Shown: positions 19,366 through 33,130, counted from the first letter of the stretch. The stretch is 64,000 nucleotides of DNA from Escherichia coli (GCF_045037415.1 NZ_CP173438.1); one strand, 5' to 3'. The notes: generated by a model from the sequence alone, not told the origin. Translations and numbers: made by a program.

Positions 19366-20034
19366 ATGACGCAATCCATTTTTCAGGCTCAACCCTTTGA
19401 ATTACCTTTTGATCCGCGCACAACTGCACTGGTCATGATCGACATGCAGCGTGACTTTGTCGAAGCCGGGGGCTTCGGTGAGGCACTGGGCAATGATGTT
19501 TCACGGGTACGCACGGCTATCGCACCATGTACAGAGGTGCTGGCAGCCGCACGTCAAAAAGGAATTATGGTTATTCATACTCGTGAAGGCCATCGTGCAG
19601 ACTTAAGCGACTGCCCGCCAGCCAAACTGACGCGCGGCGGAAAAACCTTTATTGGTGAACCAGGACCGATGGGACGCATTCTGGTCAGAGGTGAAGCAGG
19701 TCATGACATCATTCCTGAACTGTACCCGGTGGCAGGCGAACCGGTGATTGATAAGCCTGGCAAAGGCGCGTTTTATCAAACCGACTTACATCTGATTTTG
19801 CAAAACCACGGTATCAAGACGCTGATAGTTTGTGGTGTAACAACCGAAGTTTGCGTAACCACCACCGTGCGCGAAGCAAATGATCGTGGCTATGAATGCA
19901 TTATCCCGGAAGATTGTGTCGGCTCCTATTTCCCGGAATTCCAGAAATACGCCCTCGAGATGATCAAAGCACAAGGTGCCATTTTCGGTTGGGTTACTGA
20001 TTCCAAAGCCATTATTGCAGGTCTGGAAGGCTAA
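19366..20034 (+). CDS. Isochorismatase-family cysteine hydrolase (RutB / N-carbamoylsarcosine amidase / biuret hydrolase-like amidase)
   Basis: 222 aa; family triad context D (LVMIDMQRDF), K (DKPGKGAF), C (LIVCGVTTEVCV); RBS aggag upstream. Confidence 0.75.
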   Translation: MTQSIFQAQPFELPFDPRTTALVMIDMQRDFVEAGGFGEALGNDVSRVRTAIAPCTEVLAAARQKGIMVIHTREGHRADLSDCPPAKLTRGGKTFIGEPGPMGRILVRGEAGHDIIPELYPVAGEPVIDKPGKGAFYQTDLHLILQNHGIKTLIVCGVTTEVCVTTTVREANDRGYECIIPEDCVGSYFPEFQKYALEMIKAQGAIFGWVTDSKAIIAGLEG

Positions 20035-20039
20035 CGCCG

Positions 20040-20900
20040 ATGGTACAGGTTACGCTTTGCGCATCGTCGTTGGGATATCTTTTCCCGCAGGATGAAACGC
20101 AAGATTTACGTCTACATAGCGCTTTTAAACATGCGGTAAATCTGTATTCAGACGCGGGAACATTCATCACTCTGTTGTGTGCGCAAACGTATCTGAATCT
20201 CCCTGATGCTGCCAGAGTCTGGCTACCTGAATGTTGGGACTGGCGAAGAGAGATTGCCCATTCAGATCCCATTCAGTTAACCCCAGGCTTGCTGCGGACA
20301 CCTCGATTTTGTGTGGCGCTCGATAACGCAACGCTCTGGCAGTCGCCATTTGTGGGGGGAATGCTGACACTTGAGGCATTCCCTTTGGTTTTCCAGCACT
20401 ACCCAACGATGGCATCGCAACGGCTTTTATTTTGTCTGGAGCATAACGTTCAAAGCACATTGCACCTGCCGGATAGTCTCACGCACCAGGGATTAGCGAT
20501 TATGGAGCATCCAGATGCGCTGGAACGCCAGGTGCCACAACTGATCGGCTTTGGTAAAGGCTTAACGCCCGATGGAGATGACTATTTGTTGGGCTATCTG
20601 GCAGCGCTCTGGTTATGGCAACTCCCTGCACCACTTGCCGATCATCAATACCGGTTGCAGCAGGCAATTGATCAACATGCGCACAACACCACGGATATCA
20701 GTCGTCATTATCTGGAGCGTGCGCTTCAGGGACATTTTTCAGAACCGATTTGCCAGTTACTCGCACAACTGGTTGGGAGCGCATCGGCAATGACAATCGC
20801 ATCCTGTGCAGAACAGGTCATGCAATTTGGCGCAACGTCAGGAGTAGATTGCCTTGCAGGAATGCTGCATGGCTTTCGAACCCTGAACACCATGAATTGA
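20040..20900 (+). CDS. DUF2877-like protein (YahE/YlbF-like; putative carbamoyltransferase accessory subunit)
   Basis: 286 aa ORF starting 6 bp after the amidase stop. Assignment rests mainly on length and its position directly upstream of the FdrA-like gene, as in the yahEFG and fdrA-ylbEF clusters. Confidence 0.45.
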   Translation: MVQVTLCASSLGYLFPQDETQDLRLHSAFKHAVNLYSDAGTFITLLCAQTYLNLPDAARVWLPECWDWRREIAHSDPIQLTPGLLRTPRFCVALDNATLWQSPFVGGMLTLEAFPLVFQHYPTMASQRLLFCLEHNVQSTLHLPDSLTHQGLAIMEHPDALERQVPQLIGFGKGLTPDGDDYLLGYLAALWLWQLPAPLADHQYRLQQAIDQHAHNTTDISRHYLERALQGHFSEPICQLLAQLVGSASAMTIASCAEQVMQFGATSGVDCLAGMLHGFRTLNTMN

Positions 20901-20994
20901 TTTCAACCTTTTCTCCCGTAGCCCGTTTATGGGGCTACACGGGGATGCTTTGCCCGAATTTTGCTATCGGGCGGAATGAAACAGGCGTAACAGC

Positions 20995-22554
20995 ATGAAA
21001 GTTAAATATAAAGTTTTCAGTAATCTTTATCAGGACTCAGTTTCTCTGATGCAGATTTCCGCGCAAATCAGCAAGTTGCCCGGTATTCAACAGGCCTCGG
21101 TCGTCATGGGAACGCCCAATAATCTCGAACAATTGCGCGATGCGGGTCTGGGTAACGAAATCAACGCCAGTCCCAATGATTTAGTGATTGCAGTCATGGG
21201 TGAAGAAGATATTTGCAATGAAGCACTGATACTGGCCCAGCAACGTCTGACCAGCAAACCCGATGATGAAACGGATAGTGGCATTAAAACACCGGAAAAG
21301 GTCAGCCTGGAAATGGCACTGGAAGCCGAACCCGAAGCCAACCTGGCACTCATTTCTGTACCGGGAGACTACGCCGCCGCCGAAGCAATTAAAGCGTTAA
21401 ACCTCGGAATGAACGTGATGATGTTCAGCGATAACGTCAGTATCGTGCAGGAAAAATCCATCAAAACGCTTGCCCGAGAACGTCAGCGCATCGTAATGGG
21501 ACCTGACTGTGGAACCGCCATTGTTAACGGCATTCCGTTAGGCTTCGCTAATGTGGTGAAACGCGGAGCAATTGGTGTTATTGGCGCGTCAGGCACCGGG
21601 CTACAGGAAGTGACTTGCCGAATCGACCAGCTCGGAGCGGGTATTTCTCAGGCGTTGGGAACAGGCGGACATGATCTCAGTAAAGAGATTGGTGGAATAT
21701 CGATGCTCTTCGCTTTAGATGCGCTGGCGCAAGACGATGAAACTCGCGTAATTGTGCTGATTTCAAAACCGCCTTCACCGATCGTTGCCCGGACTATTCT
21801 GGAGCGCGCCGAGGCTTGTGGAAAACCCGTGGTGGTGAATTTCCTCGGGGCGAATCCGCATGATCTGGCACGTCCCAATATCACTGCCGCCACCACACTT
21901 GCCAGCGCCGCCGACATCGCTGTGGCGTTACTGAATGCTCAGCCACTTCCGGCTGTCGAAACCGATGTACCCTGCGACGATCTCACAATGTTACAAAACG
22001 CCTGCCAGCGCCTGCCAGCCCATCGCCAGGCGATACGCGGTGTTTTCGCCGGAGGAACCTTCTGCTACGAAGCGCAACTTATCTGCCAACAAAAGGGATT
22101 CAGCGCAGCTTCCAATACGCCAGTTGCGGGTAATCGTGCTCTGGCAAATATCTGGCAAAGCGAAGATCACACGTTGATCGATATGGGCGACGATGATTTC
22201 ACCCGTGGCAAACCGCATCCAATGATCGACCCGACTCTGCGCAATCAACGTCTGCTCAACGAACTCAACGACTCACACACTGCCGTCGTGTTATTCGACC
22301 TGGTACTTGGTTATGGCGCTTCCACGACGCCTGCCAGCGAATTACTGGACCAACTTTCACACATCGACATGAATAACGCTCCGTTGCTGATTGCGCACGT
22401 TTGCGGAACGGAAGCTGATCCGCAAATACGCAGTCAGCAGATAAGCGCACTACAAAATGCAGGGGTCATCATCGCCAGCAGCAATGCACAGGCGGCGCTA
22501 TGGGCCAGCACCGTTGCACAGACTCAGTTGCAGAAAAAGGGGCTAAACGCATGA
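20995..22554 (+). CDS. FdrA-family protein (succinyl-CoA-synthetase-like fold)
   Basis: 519 aa; motifs QDSVSLM, NLALISVPGDYAA, NVMMFSDNV, MGPDCGT, GVIGASGTG, KPHPMIDPTLRNQ shared with E. coli FdrA/YahF. Confidence 0.7.
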   Translation: MKVKYKVFSNLYQDSVSLMQISAQISKLPGIQQASVVMGTPNNLEQLRDAGLGNEINASPNDLVIAVMGEEDICNEALILAQQRLTSKPDDETDSGIKTPEKVSLEMALEAEPEANLALISVPGDYAAAEAIKALNLGMNVMMFSDNVSIVQEKSIKTLARERQRIVMGPDCGTAIVNGIPLGFANVVKRGAIGVIGASGTGLQEVTCRIDQLGAGISQALGTGGHDLSKEIGGISMLFALDALAQDDETRVIVLISKPPSPIVARTILERAEACGKPVVVNFLGANPHDLARPNITAATTLASAADIAVALLNAQPLPAVETDVPCDDLTMLQNACQRLPAHRQAIRGVFAGGTFCYEAQLICQQKGFSAASNTPVAGNRALANIWQSEDHTLIDMGDDDFTRGKPHPMIDPTLRNQRLLNELNDSHTAVVLFDLVLGYGASTTPASELLDQLSHIDMNNAPLLIAHVCGTEADPQIRSQQISALQNAGVIIASSNAQAALWASTVAQTQLQKKGLNA

Positions 22555-23975
22555 ATACCTTATTTAATCAGCCTTTGAAGGTTGTGAACGCGGGACTACA
22601 CAGTTTTGCTGACAATATTCAACATGCCGGGGGAAGCGCAATTGCACTCAACTGGCAGCCACCAGCACAAGGCGATATTGACGCTGGATTGGATCTGGCA
22701 TCGTTGCTACGTCATCCCCTGGTAGAAAATGCCAACCAAATCGCCATGGCACGTTATCTCGAAGCACAGCCCGTGCTGGTGGATGTCATGCTTGCTAAAG
22801 AGGCCATTCCAGCAATGGCTGAACAAAAACGTATTTTGCACTCTGGCCCGCCGATTGCCTGGGAAGAGATGTGTGGTCCGGTAAAAGGGGCGATTATTGG
22901 TGCCATGCTGTACGAAGGTTGGGCCACCAGCCAGCAAGACGCTGAAAACCAGATAAACGCAGGCGAAATCGACCTTGCCCCTTGTCATCATTATCACGCG
23001 GTTGGCCCAATGGCAGGCATCATCAGCCCGTCGATGCCGTTATGGGTGGTAGAAAACAAAACCAACGGCCACCGTACTTTTAGCAATTTCAATGAAGGTC
23101 TGGGTAAGGTTCTCCGTTTTGGCGCCAATAACGATGAAGTTCTCAATCGTCTGGCCTGGATGCGCGATGAACTGACGCCGGCAATGAAAGCAGCAATCGC
23201 ACAACACGGCGAGCTGGAACTCAAGCCATTAATGGCGCAGGCGCTGCATATGGGGGATGAAGTTCATAACCGCAATGCTGCCGCTACCGGTTTGCTGATT
23301 AAGCGCCTGCTCCCGGCATTGCTGGCCTGCTCTCTTCCACAGGAACATATCCAGCGCGTCGTGGCATTTATCACCGGTAACGATCACTTCTTCCTCAATC
23401 TGTCGATGGCCGCCTGTAAAGCAATGATGGATGCCGCCGCCAATGTACCGTTCAGTTCAATGGTTACGGTGATGGCGCGTAACGGGGTGAATTTTGGTAT
23501 TCGGATTTCCGGTACTGGCGATCGCTGGTTCCAGGCTCCTGCCAATGCCGTTGAAGGTCTGTTCTTCCCCGGATTTGGCGTTGACGACGCTGCTGCTGAC
23601 CTGGGTGATAGCGCAATTACTGAAACCGCAGGTGTGGGTGGCTTCGCGATGGCGTCGTCTCCGGCGATCGTCAAATTTGTGGGAGGCACCCCTGCCGATG
23701 CCACCAATAACAGCCGTCGGATGCAAGCCATCACCCTCGGCGGTAACCCCGCATTTACACTTCCAGCCCTCAATTTTGCCCCCACCGCAGCAGGGATTGA
23801 TGCGCGTAAAGTGACCGATCGCGGCATTTTACCGGTCATCAATACGGGTATCGCCCACAAACAAGCGGGGGTCGGGCAAATTGGTGCCGGGATCACCACT
23901 GCGCCGATGGCCTGTTTTGTCGCCGCTGTACGTGCACTGGCGGAGATCGTCGCAAAGGAGAACCATCATGGTTAA
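22551..23975 (+). CDS. DUF1116-family protein (YlbE/YahG-like)
   Basis: Start ATG overlaps the FdrA-like stop as ATGA (translational coupling); ~474 aa, the size of YlbE/YahG. Confidence 0.6.
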   Translation: MNTLFNQPLKVVNAGLHSFADNIQHAGGSAIALNWQPPAQGDIDAGLDLASLLRHPLVENANQIAMARYLEAQPVLVDVMLAKEAIPAMAEQKRILHSGPPIAWEEMCGPVKGAIIGAMLYEGWATSQQDAENQINAGEIDLAPCHHYHAVGPMAGIISPSMPLWVVENKTNGHRTFSNFNEGLGKVLRFGANNDEVLNRLAWMRDELTPAMKAAIAQHGELELKPLMAQALHMGDEVHNRNAAATGLLIKRLLPALLACSLPQEHIQRVVAFITGNDHFFLNLSMAACKAMMDAAANVPFSSMVTVMARNGVNFGIRISGTGDRWFQAPANAVEGLFFPGFGVDDAAADLGDSAITETAGVGGFAMASSPAIVKFVGGTPADATNNSRRMQAITLGGNPAFTLPALNFAPTAAGIDARKVTDRGILPVINTGIAHKQAGVGQIGAGITTAPMACFVAAVRALAEIVAKENHHG

Positions 23976-24924
23976 GCCACTGGCTGTCGTCGCGGTTGGC
24001 GGCAATGCGCTCATTCAGGACGAGCAACGCAATAGTATTCCCGATCAATATGTTGCAGTGATGGAAAGCGTGCAGCATATCGTTGATATGGTTGAAGCCG
24101 GATGGGACCTGGTGCTAACCCACGGTAATGGCCCGCAGGTGGGCTTTATTCTGCGCCGCTCTGAACTCGCCAGTAACGAAGTTTCTCCGGTTCCACTTGA
24201 TTACGCCGTGGGTGATACACAAGGTGCAATTGGCTACATGTTCCAGAAAGCGCTGCATAACGAACTCGCTCGCCGTGGCATAAACAAACCGGTAATTGCC
24301 CTGGTGACACAAACGCGAGTCAGCCCACATGACGATGCTTTCGCCAGCCCCAGTAAACCGATTGGCGCGTTTCTCGATGAAGCAACGGCCCAACAACGCC
24401 AACAACAACTCGGCTGGACGCTGATGGAGGACGCCGGGCGTGGTTGGCGGCGTACAGTTCCCTCTCCTGCACCACTGGAAATTATTGAGCACGACACCAT
24501 CGCTCACCTGGTGCGCCAGGGATATCTGGTTATTGCCTGCGGCGGCGGCGGTATTCCGGTGGTGCGAGACGGGCAACAACTGAAAGGTGTAGAAGCCGTG
24601 ATCGATAAAGATCTGGCCTCCGCGCTGCTCGCCAGTCAGTTAGGCGCAGATCTGCTGGTGATCCCCACCGGTGTAGAAAAAGTGGCGATTAACTTTGGTA
24701 CACCACAACAACAGTGGCTCGACGCTATCAGCGTTGCCGAAGCGCAAACGCTGTTGCGGGAAGGTCAGTTTGGTGTCGGCAGTATGCAACCCAAAGTGGA
24801 AGCCATTGTTGATTTCATCAATGCCAGCCAGCAACAAGGCAAACAGGCCAGCGGCCTGATTACTTCACCGCAAACCATAAAAGCAGCCCTGGCGCATCAG
24901 AGCGGTACATGGATAACCCTTTAA
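23968..24924 (+). CDS. Carbamate kinase
   Basis: Start at MVKPLAVVAVGGNAL with RBS aaggag; carbamate-kinase motifs THGNGPQVG, CGGGGIPV, VIDKD, GSMQPK; overlaps the upstream stop by 8 bp. Confidence 0.8.
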   Translation: MVKPLAVVAVGGNALIQDEQRNSIPDQYVAVMESVQHIVDMVEAGWDLVLTHGNGPQVGFILRRSELASNEVSPVPLDYAVGDTQGAIGYMFQKALHNELARRGINKPVIALVTQTRVSPHDDAFASPSKPIGAFLDEATAQQRQQQLGWTLMEDAGRGWRRTVPSPAPLEIIEHDTIAHLVRQGYLVIACGGGGIPVVRDGQQLKGVEAVIDKDLASALLASQLGADLLVIPTGVEKVAINFGTPQQQWLDAISVAEAQTLLREGQFGVGSMQPKVEAIVDFINASQQQGKQASGLITSPQTIKAALAHQSGTWITL

Positions 24925-24940
24925 TTCTCTGGAGAACACA

Positions 24941-25330
24941 ATGACTACAACGCTTTTAGCCGTTAACGGAACGCTGATGCGCGGCCTGGAACTCAACCCA
25001 AATATGCAAAAAGCGGGCGGTATTTTTGTCCGTGAAGACCGAACTGACGCCCATTACCGGTTGTGGAGTATTAATGATCGCCATCCGGGAATGATTCGCG
25101 TGAATGAAGGAGGAACACACGTCGACGTAGAAATTTGGCAATTACCGCTGGCCAGTTTTGCCGCTCTGTTAATGAGCGAACCCGCTGGGCTGGCAATTGG
25201 CAAAATCAAACTTGCCGATGGTAGCGAAGTGCTGGGCGTACTGGCAGAAAACTGGCTGACCGAAGGCCAACGGGAAATTACAGAACTGGGTAGCTGGCGT
25301 AAATACACCGGGCATTTTCATACTGTGTAA
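24941..25330 (+). CDS. Gamma-glutamylcyclotransferase-like (AIG2/GGCT fold) small protein
   Basis: 129 aa, N-terminal LLAVNGTLMRG resembles the GGCT-fold YGSL-type motif; function inferred only weakly. Confidence 0.4.
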   Translation: MTTTLLAVNGTLMRGLELNPNMQKAGGIFVREDRTDAHYRLWSINDRHPGMIRVNEGGTHVDVEIWQLPLASFAALLMSEPAGLAIGKIKLADGSEVLGVLAENWLTEGQREITELGSWRKYTGHFHTV

Positions 25331-25355
25331 CGCGCATTTATAAAGGGAACATACT

Positions 25356-26579
25356 ATGCGTAAAAAAGAAGAGAATCTGAATACGGCATCAGGATTGCGT
25401 ATTGCCATGATTTTGCTGGGTATTGCCGTCACACCTGTGCTGTTGTCATCCTCAAGCCTCGGCAATCAACTTTCCAGCGGCAGTTTAATTAGCGTCGTAT
25501 TGTTAGGCGGCGTCATTCTGACCTTACTTTCAGCCATCACCATTAGCGTGGGAGAAAAAGCCCGCCTGCCAACGTATGGCATTGTGAAATATTCGTTTGG
25601 CGAAAAAGGGGCCATCGCCATTAACATTTTGATGGCGATAAGTCTGTTCGGCTGGATTGCCGTTACCGCCAATATGTTTGGTCATTCGGTACATGACTTA
25701 CTGGCTCAACATGGACTGGAAGTTCCACTGGCACTGTTAGTGGCGGCTGGCTGTGTCATTTTTGTCGCCTCTACGGCATTTGGCTTTGCCGTTCTGGGAA
25801 AAATTGCCCAGGTTGCCGTGCCGGTTATCGCGCTGGTGCTGTGTTACATCCTCTATGTGGCAACCCATACCGAAGTGGCAGTACCAGCGGCGATTGTGGA
25901 GATGAATACAGGTGTCGCCGTTTCCACCGTTGTTGGCACCATTATTGTGCTGGTTGCCACACTGCCTGATTTCGGTAGTTTTGTGCATAACCGCAAACAT
26001 GCGCTGATTGCCGCAGGCGTGACGTTTCTGGTTGCCTACCCTCTGCTCTACTGGGCGGGTGCAACGCCGAGCGCCATTAGTGGTCAGGGATCTTTACTGG
26101 GTGCGATGGCGGTATTCGGTGCAGTTCTGCCTGCGGCGCTGTTGTTGATTTTCGCCTGCGTCACCGGTAACGCGGGCAATATGTTCCAGGGCACGCTGGT
26201 GGTTTCCACACTGCTTACCCGCTTTCCCAAATGGCAGATTACCGTGGCGCTGGGTATCCTTTCCGCCATCGTAGGCAGTATGGATATTATGGCGTGGTTT
26301 ATTCCGTTTCTGCTGTTCCTGGGTATCGCCACGCCACCCGTTGCCGGAATTTATATCGCTGACTTTTTCCTTTATCGCCGTAATGGCTATCAAGAGTCAG
26401 TGTTAGCCCAGGAGTCACAGATTAAAGTGCTGACATTCGCAGCATGGATCATAGGCGCAGCGGTTGGCTTTATGACCGTAAAAGGCTTATTCACCCTGAC
26501 GACGATCCCTTCGGTAGACTCGATTCTGGTGGCATGTATCGCGTATGCGATTCTCAGTCGGGCAAGTCAACACCGCTAA
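25356..26579 (+). CDS. NCS1-family nucleobase/ureide permease (cytosine permease CodB-like)
   Basis: 407 aa, ~12 TM segments, size and composition like CodB/allantoin-type permeases. Confidence 0.65.
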   Translation: MRKKEENLNTASGLRIAMILLGIAVTPVLLSSSSLGNQLSSGSLISVVLLGGVILTLLSAITISVGEKARLPTYGIVKYSFGEKGAIAINILMAISLFGWIAVTANMFGHSVHDLLAQHGLEVPLALLVAAGCVIFVASTAFGFAVLGKIAQVAVPVIALVLCYILYVATHTEVAVPAAIVEMNTGVAVSTVVGTIIVLVATLPDFGSFVHNRKHALIAAGVTFLVAYPLLYWAGATPSAISGQGSLLGAMAVFGAVLPAALLLIFACVTGNAGNMFQGTLVVSTLLTRFPKWQITVALGILSAIVGSMDIMAWFIPFLLFLGIATPPVAGIYIADFFLYRRNGYQESVLAQESQIKVLTFAAWIIGAAVGFMTVKGLFTLTTIPSVDSILVACIAYAILSRASQHR

Positions 26580-26656
26580 TTCCTGGGTATACTCAGGCAA
26601 TGATTACGGCTGAATCTGGAGAGATTCAGCCACTTTACCACTGACCAGGGAGCCTT

Positions 26657-27562
26657 ATGTTCATCTCAGACGAAACGCTTCGTGTTATTCATCTGGTCGC
26701 CAGACACCAGAGCATTACCACCGCAGCCGAGCAGTTAAATAAAGTCCCTTCCGCCATCAGTTACACCATCAAGAAAGCGGAAGAGAGCCTGGGCGTTGAA
26801 CTGTTCATTCGTAAGGGACGCTATATTGAATTATCGCCAGCGGGAAGTTACTTCATCGAACATAGCAAAACTATTCTTGGCGACCTGGAAGCATTAAAGC
26901 GCAACACAGTGCTGATTCACGATGGTATTGAGCGTGAACTGACAATTGCGGTAAACAATATTATTCCTGGTGATTTGCTGGTGGCATTTATTCGAGATTT
27001 TGAACGGCAATTCACATCAACAACACTGACGGTAGATCTTGAGGTATACAACGGCTGCTGGGATGCGCTGTACAGTAAGCGTGCTGATCTGGTCTACGGT
27101 GCTCCTCATGCAGTACCAAGCAGTGAAGGCATCATTAGCGAACCGGTCGGACAAATGGAATGGGATTTTGTCGTCAGCCCACTCCACCCACTGGCAGCGA
27201 AGCGGCATCCATTAGAAAACAGTGAATTGCGTCATTATCCAGCGGTTTGTATCCGCGATACCTCCGTTAACTTCCCCCCGATGCAAGCCTGGTTGTTGGA
27301 AGGACAAAAACCCATTTTTGTTCCTGACTTCGCTACGGCAATCGCCTTAATAGAACAAAACGTCGGTATTGGTTATATTCCACATCATCTGGCATTACCG
27401 TTATTGAACAGCGGTAAATTGCTTAAAAAGCCAATGCGCGAACATAAACACGCCACCAAGTTATTTCTTGCCGCTCGTTCCGATGGTATGGGCAAAGCCT
27501 GTCAGTGGTGCATAGAATATTTAAGAAACCAGCAATTAATGACACGATTTGTATTTAATTGA
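26657..27562 (+). CDS. LysR-family transcriptional regulator
   Basis: 301 aa; N-terminal HTH (TAAEQLNKVPSAISYTIKKAEESLGVELF) plus LysR substrate-binding domain. Confidence 0.8.
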   Translation: MFISDETLRVIHLVARHQSITTAAEQLNKVPSAISYTIKKAEESLGVELFIRKGRYIELSPAGSYFIEHSKTILGDLEALKRNTVLIHDGIERELTIAVNNIIPGDLLVAFIRDFERQFTSTTLTVDLEVYNGCWDALYSKRADLVYGAPHAVPSSEGIISEPVGQMEWDFVVSPLHPLAAKRHPLENSELRHYPAVCIRDTSVNFPPMQAWLLEGQKPIFVPDFATAIALIEQNVGIGYIPHHLALPLLNSGKLLKKPMREHKHATKLFLAARSDGMGKACQWCIEYLRNQQLMTRFVFN

Positions 27563-27689
27563 CAATACAATGATAAAAATATAAGTCTTGCTTTAATTAG
27601 AGCGCCCGTTTAAATTATTTTTGTGCAGTTGACGTAATTCATGAAAATTAACCGGTCTGTTAATCATTACGTTCACTGCACACCTTCAT

Positions 27690-27761
27690 TTTTTCACACC
27701 TATCCACGCCTGAAAACTATGTTATAATCAGCACTTTCTGTCAGAATGAAATTTACTAATT
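27690..27761 (+). promoter_or_regulatory. Putative promoter of the RpiR-family gene (extended -10 TGTTATAAT)
   Basis: tgttataat about 35 bp upstream of the ATG in an AT-rich intergenic region. Confidence 0.3.
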
Positions 27762-32234: not shown

Positions 32235-32804
32235 CTATTCCAGATTGGCGTGGCGCTTAAACAGTTCACTTTCCGGCGCACCACTTTCAGCAGCCATCTT
32301 CATCACTAATGCATCGGCAATCACCAGCAAAGCTTGCTCATACAACGACGCCATCGGCTGTGCCGAGCGGAAAACAGAATCTTTTTGATTTTTGGAAGGG
32401 GCATTGATTTGCACGATGACGTCGACAAACTCGGTGATAGTGGCGTGTCGATTCGTGGTTAACACCGCCACAGCGCCGCCGAGCTGACGTGCTTTTTTCG
32501 CCAGCGCCACCAGTTGTGCTGTCTCACCGGAAGCAGAAGAAACGATAAACAGATCGCCAGGCCCAAAGTTCGGCGTAATGGTTTCCGTCAGGAAGTAAAC
32601 CTCTTTTCCCATATGCATCAGGCGCATGGTGAAGGCTTTCATAGAAAAACCGGCGCGTCCCAGGCCATAGCAGAAAACGCGCTGGCTTTGCTGAATAGTG
32701 TCGATCAATTTGGTGCAGTCATCCTCACGGATAGAGTCCTTAACGAAGGTTAATTCATTGATGATCTCAGTGATGTACAGCTTTGCGTCCATTTCACACC
32801 TCAT
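32235..32804 (-). CDS. 6-phospho-3-hexuloisomerase-like SIS-domain protein (HxlB/PHI family)
   Basis: ~185 aa single SIS domain; MRLMHMG, QPMASLYEQ and C-terminal HANLE closely resemble B. subtilis HxlB. The true start may be the second Met (MDAKLYI, 12 bp in). Confidence 0.75.
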   Translation of the reverse strand: MRCEMDAKLYITEIINELTFVKDSIREDDCTKLIDTIQQSQRVFCYGLGRAGFSMKAFTMRLMHMGKEVYFLTETITPNFGPGDLFIVSSASGETAQLVALAKKARQLGGAVAVLTTNRHATITEFVDVIVQINAPSKNQKDSVFRSAQPMASLYEQALLVIADALVMKMAAESGAPESELFKRHANLE

Positions 32805-32829
32805 GAAATAATTTTCTCAAACACAAAAT

Positions 32830-32850
32830 CTCATGAAATTTTATTTCATT
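32830..32850. promoter_or_regulatory. Perfect palindrome TGAAAT-TTT-ATTTCA upstream of the PHI-PTS-transketolase operon (candidate operator)
   Basis: tgaaattttatttca about 30 bp upstream of the SIS gene start; related TGAAAT/ATTTCA copies near 32793-32810, 32865 and 32990. Confidence 0.3.
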
Positions 32851-33091
32851 CCAATGCATCAGTATGAAATGTGAAGCTAGTCACAAGAAAGATCATAGGT
32901 TGATATGTTTTTCATTAAAAAACATAGAGATATCAAGTAATTTTTAATATGTGATGGAGAGGCAGATAGAAAAAATGGCGGAAATGACGAAATTTATTTC
33001 ATGAGAAGGGAATAAAGAAGATTTTCTTAAACAGGGTATGAACTGATATCTGGAATGGTTTACGCAGTATGCTGGGAAGACGTCGCTGTAA

Positions 33092-33122
33092 TGAGAAAAG
33101 ACCGGGTGGTATTACCACCCGG
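33092..33122 (-). terminator. Rho-independent terminator downstream of metE
   Basis: ccgggtggt-att-accacccgg stem with a T-rich tract on the minus strand just after the metE stop. Confidence 0.5.
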
Positions 33123-33130
33123 TTTGGATT

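Follow-up and report, generated by a model that had tools for sequence, protein, structure and literature searches.

The MurR–murQP and AlsR (RpiR)–als systems of Escherichia coli each place a local repressor of the RpiR family over a sugar-phosphate catabolic or PTS operon. The DNA sites of two other members of this family have been described. The tetrameric RccR recognizes a 15-bp sequence (TGTAGT-N3-ACTACA), present in two copies upstream of aceE, from which it is released by KDPG (PMC5489143), and the HexR site (TTGT-N7-8-ACAA) tolerates a change of 1 bp in its spacing (PMC5489143, PMC11014249). Proteins of this family can also be activators (PMC11014249). The tkt1 island, horizontally acquired and found mainly in B2 extraintestinal pathogenic E. 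coli, is the locus of a transketolase gene whose mutation leads to attenuation in chickens (PMC3349570), and its isomerase, PTS and RpiR genes are still uncharacterised according to a 2026 genome paper (PMC12928451). The 2012 study of tkt1 neither mentions RpiR nor addresses the regulation of the operon (PMC3349570); in the literature searched, we found no paper combining RpiR, hexuloisomerase, transketolase and PTS, and no description of the candidate operators presented below.

In the E. coli DNA analysed here (a single stretch of 64 kb, hereafter the window), the island is an accessory insertion between ysgA and metE. The leader of the tkt1 operon spans approximately 300 bp, from position 32793 up to the metE terminator, with a G+C content of 32% (table 1). 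The start codon of the first gene is the ATG at 32792–32790, rather than the ATG at 32804 that would give the longest open reading frame, and the PGAP annotation of an identical E. coli locus places the start of hxlB at the equivalent of 32792. The rpiR gene is convergent with tkt1 and lies at the distal end of the operon, with 4.2 kb between it and the leader, so that its description as ‘adjacent’ in a first-pass annotation of this DNA was incorrect. The 1-kb stretch around the sites discussed below is 100% identical in many complete genomes, and is found with at least 80% coverage in 672 of 5,426 complete genomes. In its other half (19366–27562), the island encodes a cysteine hydrolase, a DUF2877 protein, FdrA, a DUF1116 protein, a carbamate kinase, an allophanate-hydrolase-related protein, a cytosine permease and a LysR regulator, apparently as a separate module of nitrogen or pyrimidine type that is unrelated to the tkt1 operon.

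Table 1. Features of the tkt1 operon and its leader (coordinates counted from the first nucleotide of the window).
Feature	Coordinates	Strand	Remarks
RpiR/MurR-family regulator, HTH_6 + SIS, 281 aa	27762–28607	+	proposed repressor binding D, C and P
Transketolase Tkt1, 665 aa	28637–30634	−	last gene of the operon (PMC3349570)
PTS EIICB component, glucose family, 502 aa	30685–32193	−	
hxlB, SIS-domain 6-phospho-3-hexuloisomerase-like, 185 aa	32235–32792	−	first gene of the operon; TIGR03127, 205 bits (cutoff 160)
Shine-Dalgarno GAGG of first gene	32799–32802	−	
Site P, GAAAT-AA-TTTTC	32805–32816		dyad match; N2, 1 mismatch
Site C, GAAAT-TTT-ATTTC	32835–32847		N3, perfect; most conserved block of the enterobacterial leader alignment
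CRP core TGTGA-N6-TCACA, TGTGAAGCTAGTCACA	32870–32885		single perfect match in 64 kb (0.04 expected)
Site D, GAAAT-TT-ATTTC	32989–33000		dyad match; N2, perfect
Intrinsic terminator of metE	33101–33123	−	upstream limit of the leader

The regulator itself matches the NCBIfam models of the RpiR family (HexR, MurR, AlsR and others) over residues 2–279, with scores of 107 bits for HexR (cutoff 296), 72 for MurR (cutoff 408), 95 for AlsR (cutoff 400) and 105 for PRK11337 (cutoff 378). Since all these scores are far below the cutoffs, the island RpiR is an uncharacterised family member outside the HexR, MurR and AlsR orthologue groups. PGAP names it a MurR/RpiR family regulator, and its orthologues carry both PF01418 and PF01380.

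A perfect TGAAAT-TTT-ATTTCA palindrome at approximately 32834–32848, accompanied by further copies of TGAAAT/ATTTCA, had been reported in the leader from the sequence alone. Both observations were borne out: TGAAATTTTATTTCA occupies exactly 32834–32848, without mismatch, and the other copies lie at 32791–32796 (−), 32804–32809 (+), 32865–32870 (+) and 32996–33001 (−). The null model for these counts consisted of dinucleotide-preserving shuffles of the AT-rich stretch itself. In the interval 32790–33005, six hexamers are seen for 1.06 expected, a value that none of 5000 shuffles reached, and the 7-mer ATGAAAT occurs five times for 0.43 expected. The exact 10-mer CTCATGAAAT has three copies in the window, all of them within this leader, two being direct repeats 30 bp apart and the third inverted.

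The functional unit is predicted to be narrower than the TGAAAT hexamer, namely the dyad GAAAT-N2/3-ATTTC, which (with at most one mismatch) matches exactly three times in the 64 kb, at sites P, C and D of this leader. The earlier view of the hexamers as repeated half-sites stands for the four that belong to these dyads. The other two are outside the dyad system: the copy at 32791–32796 overlaps the start codon and is unconserved in orthologous leaders, and the copy at 32865–32870 is the AAATGTGA flank of the CRP site, an element that the first-pass annotation had left out. Measured between centres, the distance from the CRP site to site C is 36.5 bp, and a further 30.5 bp separate C from site P, which abuts the Shine-Dalgarno sequence; the ATG follows 49 bp downstream of the centre of C and 18.5 bp downstream of that of P. 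Site D is found 153.5 bp upstream of C, with a CATGAG flank in the opposite orientation to that of C and P. With this flank (32989–33012), it forms a 24-nt, 83% identical inverted copy of the region of site P and the Shine-Dalgarno sequence (32793–32816), which has the appearance of a remnant, either of a divergent leader or of an inverted duplication on a local scale. Duplication thus seems to have shaped the E. coli leader.

Orthologous loci were gathered through protein searches and contig look-ups, a scan of genome contigs for the isomerase having yielded only two loci. The enterobacterial comparison involved six leaders: those of E. coli, of two Klebsiella-like loci (L002 and L010), of L008 and L012, and of Serratia ficaria (L004); L009, a near-identical second copy of L008, was not counted as distinct. 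The product of the first gene is 71–81% identical across the five further loci. The leaders align poorly overall and share a single architecture, composed of a CRP-like core, site C, site P and the Shine-Dalgarno sequence. The distance from the CRP core to site C is 22 nt in five of the six leaders and 21 nt in Serratia. Site C reads GAAAT-N3-ATTTCATGA and is followed by 18 nt leading to site P (GAAAT-N2-ATTTC), directly 5′ of the Shine-Dalgarno sequence. The alignment columns invariant in all six leaders are the GAAA and TTTCATG of site C (GAAA-N5-TTTCATG), together with the CRP half-sites. A counterpart of site P is found in four of the five other leaders (N2 in L002, L008 and L010, N3 in Serratia) and is degenerate in L012, and the centres of C and P are 30.0–30.5 bp apart wherever both dyads were scored. 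E. coli and the three Klebsiella-type leaders all combine an N3 site C with an N2 site P. The distal element, containing CATGAAAT, is present in four of the six leaders (site D of E. coli, L002, L010 and L012).

Two of these loci display peculiarities of their own. The L002 contig (CACSKA010000003.1) is labelled Chryseobacterium sp. 18061, yet its proteins are 79–90% identical to those of E. coli/Klebsiella and its genes are in synteny with those of K. pneumoniae L010; contamination by enterobacterial DNA or mislabelling of the assembly is the probable cause. In L008 (9578–13602) and L009 (3262–7286), the PTS gene and tkt are separated by the insertion of a second cassette, which encodes PTS EIIC/IIB, a zinc alcohol dehydrogenase, a GntR regulator and EIIA.

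The geometry of site C raises the question of KdgR, the pectin/hexuronate repressor of the IclR family, which might control the operon in place of RpiR if site C were a KdgR box. The published KdgR consensus, AAATGAAACAnTGTTTCATTT, has the same TGAAAx-N3-xTTTCA arrangement (PMC5559549). Site C matches this consensus at 14 of 20 positions, and its L002 and L010 counterparts at 15 of 20. Genes of the KdgR regulon are, moreover, reportedly under CRP control as a rule. However, the authentic kdgT operator of the same E. coli strain scores 17/20 and has an inner C/G pair (AAAC...GTTT) where the island sites have T/A, KdgR prefers T at the position taken by the invariant G that follows TTTCAT, and sites P and D, both N2-spaced, score 12/20 at most. 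The same dyad also recurs with the RpiR module in leaders of Enterococcus and Sebaldella, which do not exceed 12 on the KdgR consensus. Following this comparison with the kdgT operator and the consensus, and since neither the N2 sites nor the leaders of Enterococcus and Sebaldella fit, we rejected the KdgR box, which we now consider very unlikely. Operators of Mlc/NagC and Cra were likewise dismissed on the orientation and spacing of their half-sites, and because neither regulator belongs to the module conserved in Enterococcus and Sebaldella.

More distant orthologues of the island RpiR, with 42–49% identity, were retrieved from Enterococcus (L014 and L017), Sebaldella (L015) and two other contigs (L016 and L019). 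Their modules comprise a SIS isomerase, a split transketolase (tktN-tktC) and a PTS (absent in L019), with rpiR as the last gene. All five leaders carry CGAAAT-N2/3-ATTTCG, in one to five copies each and in at least two copies in four of the five. L016 has two perfect GCGAAATAAATTTCGCC sites, L015 has CGAAATAAAATTTCG, L019 has CGAAATAAATTTC, and both Enterococcus leaders have CGAAAT(A/T)A(A/T)ATTTCG immediately 5′ of the Shine-Dalgarno sequence. In an unbiased search of ten leaders for all 5-mer dyads with gaps of 0–8, GAAAT-N2 ranked first (seven leaders) and GAAAT-N3 second (five leaders), and in shuffled leaders no dyad was common to more than three. The dyad is 57 times as dense in leaders as in the other 184 kb of these loci, and every leader exceeds its own Markov shuffles in dyad matches. 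Chance, composition and duplication are rejected as the source of the dyads, by the shuffles and by conservation across distant lineages.

The dyads could nonetheless be bound by another factor or by none, and be promoter elements, sites for nucleoid proteins (H-NS), relics of duplication or, in Serratia, targets of an SgrR-like protein. A leader with 32% G+C in a horizontally acquired island (PMC3349570), the inverted 24-nt copy of P at site D (hence a duplication), the SgrR-like gene preceding the operon in L004 and L012, and a −10-like hexamer (T-NNN-AT) readable within site C would all fit such an origin. Composition-matched shuffles, however, fail to give the observed counts, and both sequence and position are conserved across otherwise unalignable leaders, from enterobacteria to Enterococcus and Sebaldella. 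As for the SgrR-like gene, none of the E. coli, Klebsiella-like, Enterococcus and Sebaldella loci has it. We regard this family of explanations as quite improbable.

The regulator content of the loci points to RpiR. The rpiR gene is linked to the module in E. coli, L002, L010, Serratia L004, L014, L017, L015, L016 and L019, and no regulator other than the RpiR orthologue is shared by all loci positive for the dyad; the SgrR-like gene is restricted to L004 and L012, and the LysR gene to E. coli. From enterobacteria to Enterococcus and Sebaldella, non-random sites conserved in both sequence and position thus occur together with an RpiR orthologue. Negative controls were taken from homologues of the isomerase whose loci lack this RpiR, namely L005 and L007 (tkt-SIS loci with ROK or LysR neighbours) and L003 from Bacillus, whose context we take to be of RuMP type. 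No dyad was found upstream of the isomerase gene in any of these three. There is none either in L018, where a more distant RpiR homologue (39% identity) stands in another gene context. The HTH region is well conserved among the RpiR orthologues (SEATIxRxxKKxGYxGFYHxKI), as expected if these proteins share a half-site.

The control of rpiR itself seems to differ between lineages. In the Enterococcus, Sebaldella, L016 and L019 modules, rpiR lies inside the dyad-led operon. In E. coli and L002, no dyad was detected upstream of rpiR, and autoregulation through such a site was rejected on this ground for both. An extended −10 element, TGTTATAAT, precedes the gene in both genomes (27721–27729 in E. 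coli). Because of this element and of the lack of an upstream dyad, enterobacteria probably produce the regulator constitutively. A 17-nt inverted repeat (TGTGCAGTTGACGTAAT and ATTACGTTCACTGCACA, 27 nt apart) is also present upstream of the E. coli gene, at 27622–27682.

Turning to transcription of the operon, cores resembling TGTGA-N6-xCACA occupy the position of the E. coli CRP site in the orthologous enterobacterial leaders. A 23-bp palindrome (TATGTTTTT-N5-AAAAACATA, 32904–32926), some 37 bp upstream of the centre of the CRP site, was seen in the E. coli leader and in none of the others. A scan of the E. coli leader with the sigma-70 consensus recognized no promoter, and none of the −10 candidates picked by eye combines a good hexamer with CRP at either textbook position (−41.5 or −61.5). 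The best hexamer, TAAAAT within site C, would place CRP at −46.5; the weak TTTTGT would place it at −61.5, K. pneumoniae reading CATTAT at the equivalent position; and TGaGAAAAT within site P would place it at approximately −72.5 to −73.5. These manual candidates are inconsistent between species, and each of the three places C or P within the footprint of RNA polymerase.

Promoters are more readily recognized in the distant loci. The scan returned TTGACT/TTGACA-17-TATACT in L014, L016 and L017, with 10–11 of 12 consensus positions. In all three leaders a dyad begins 12–13 nt after the −10 hexamer, which corresponds roughly to +5 to +20, and in L014 and L017 another dyad ends approximately 10 nt before the −35 hexamer. 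Strong promoters with a dyad just downstream of the start suggest repression. A conserved TTTGTAAACG precedes and overlaps the promoter-proximal dyad in the same leaders (L014 3336–3346, L016 3046–3056 and L017 2974–2984); it resembles a half-site of cre (CcpA), and would be a Gram-positive counterpart of the enterobacterial CRP site.

A different role for the same protein deserves consideration at this point, as the dyads could be genuine RpiR sites bound by an activator or by a dual regulator switched by its ligand, with N2 and N3 sites possibly differing in their response to the effector. Members of the family activate or repress, and RccR moves between sites with short and long spacers upon binding KDPG (PMC5489143, PMC11014249). 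In the tkt1 leader, C (N3) and P (N2) differ in spacing, and this difference is conserved; the scan, moreover, recognized no E. coli promoter, so that an activator might be required. Yet CRP already provides an activator, site P abuts the Shine-Dalgarno sequence, and in L014, L016 and L017 the dyad just past the −10 of a near-consensus promoter is in a position to block RNA polymerase. Activation or dual regulation by RpiR consequently appears unlikely.

The proximity of site P to the ribosome-binding site also brings up an action at the RNA level, whether through hairpins in the 5′ UTR or through pairing of D (CUCAUGAAAU) with P (AUUUCAUGAG), which would mask the ribosome-binding site. D is perfectly complementary to P or C over 10–11 nt, and P directly abuts the Shine-Dalgarno sequence. 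Each dyad, however, gives merely a 5-bp A/U-rich stem, the proximal 91 nt fold no better than their shuffles (z = −1.47), a search of Rfam returned no family near threshold for the leader, and the upstream dyads of L014, L016 and L017 fall outside the transcripts of the predicted promoters. An RNA-based mechanism is on these grounds extremely unlikely.

We thus favour, as a likely explanation, a CRP-activated promoter repressed through the dyads by the RpiR-family protein of the island, and relieved by a phosphosugar. The suggestion that the half-sites are RpiR operators, already made in the first-pass annotation, is supported by the comparative evidence at hand: the rank of the dyad, its 57-fold density, its conserved position, its co-occurrence with RpiR, its placement relative to promoters and its RccR-like geometry. 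The leader would then act as a dual-control region, in which cAMP-CRP activates transcription from its site whereas the RpiR-family protein binds the three dyads. As C and P, flanked by the CRP site on one side and the ribosome-binding site on the other, are 30.5 bp or about three helical turns apart, a dimer of dimers could occupy both on one face of the helix, possibly looping to D. Bound RpiR would occlude the core promoter and the early transcribed region, and the operon would stay off until RpiR is released by a phosphosugar, formed on PTS uptake or by the isomerase, that binds to its SIS domain. We infer RpiR as the binder, repression, cooperativity and the phosphosugar inducer from these comparisons; cooperative binding in particular is suggested by the 30.5-bp spacing and by the tetramers known in the family. 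The mixture of N2 and N3 spacings is unusual for a single dimeric HTH protein, and counts against the reading of the dyads as RpiR operators. So do the dyad-free upstream regions of the E. coli and Klebsiella-like rpiR genes, the E. coli leader in which the scan recognized no sigma-70 promoter, the resemblance of site C to the KdgR box, the activators known in the family and the dyad-free L018 locus. Overall, the regulatory logic is most likely conventional, a local RpiR-family repressor being combined with co-activation by CRP.

A broader interpretation can be put forward more tentatively. The dyads and RpiR might constitute a mobile regulon of enterobacteria, Enterococcus and Sebaldella, serving an undescribed PTS-sugar pathway, the operators having moved with the genes. 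Such a pathway would involve uptake, isomerization by the SIS enzyme and cleavage by transketolase, often with genes for a GFO/IDH/MocA oxidoreductase, an AP_endonuc_2 protein and a hydrolase, and a single tetramer could, through the conserved combination of N2 and N3 sites, read its effector differently from one site to another, as RccR does. Genes for GFO/IDH/MocA oxidoreductases, AP_endonuc_2 proteins and alpha/beta-hydrolases accompany the isomerase-PTS-RpiR module in varying subsets in Serratia, Klebsiella and L016 (L004 801–4872; L010 12593–14558; L016 23–2750; L012 1–1766), and a gene for a MOFRL glycerate kinase is also present there in enterobacterial loci; this gene content suggests a larger pathway. 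On this reading, knowing the inducer would also disclose which substrate underlies the virulence-associated tkt1 island.

With an operator motif, a CRP site and a candidate repressor, the regulation of the tkt1 operon becomes directly testable, and the candidate operators give a handle for finding the inducing sugar. An operator recurring with its module in distant lineages also makes a tidy example for comparative genomics.

Compared with known systems, the layout of the leader recalls lac-type control by a repressor and CRP, with an activator site upstream, operators that would overlap the promoter or lie downstream of it, and, approximately 150 bp away, an auxiliary one that could permit looping; the regulator family is different, and in the tkt1 leader both the start and the looping are putative. 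The KdgR box of enterobacteria resembles site C in its TGAAAx-N3-xTTTCA geometry, its A/T-rich context and the CRP-dependent catabolic operon downstream, but it differs in the inner base pair and in the outer flanks, N2 spacing is found at two of the three island sites, and the island motif accompanies rpiR into Enterococcus and Sebaldella. Relative to the MurR and AlsR systems, the island protein is non-orthologous (72–105 bits against cutoffs of 355–408), its gene is convergent at the 3′ end of the operon whereas theirs are divergent from the promoter, and no operator is visible upstream of rpiR in the E. coli island. Further parallels are with the KDPG-responsive RccR and HexR of Pseudomonas. 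Their half-sites (TGTAGT for RccR, TTGT for HexR) differ from the GAAAT found here, and they regulate central carbon metabolism, whereas the island RpiR is local to one acquired PTS operon. They nevertheless have the same HTH_6 + SIS architecture as the island RpiR, and both are released by a phosphosugar (PMC5489143, PMC11014249). The RccR 15-mer has the same 6-3-6 geometry as site C (PMC5489143), and its two sites before one target, aceE, are matched by the multiple copies of the island leader, which carries three dyads.
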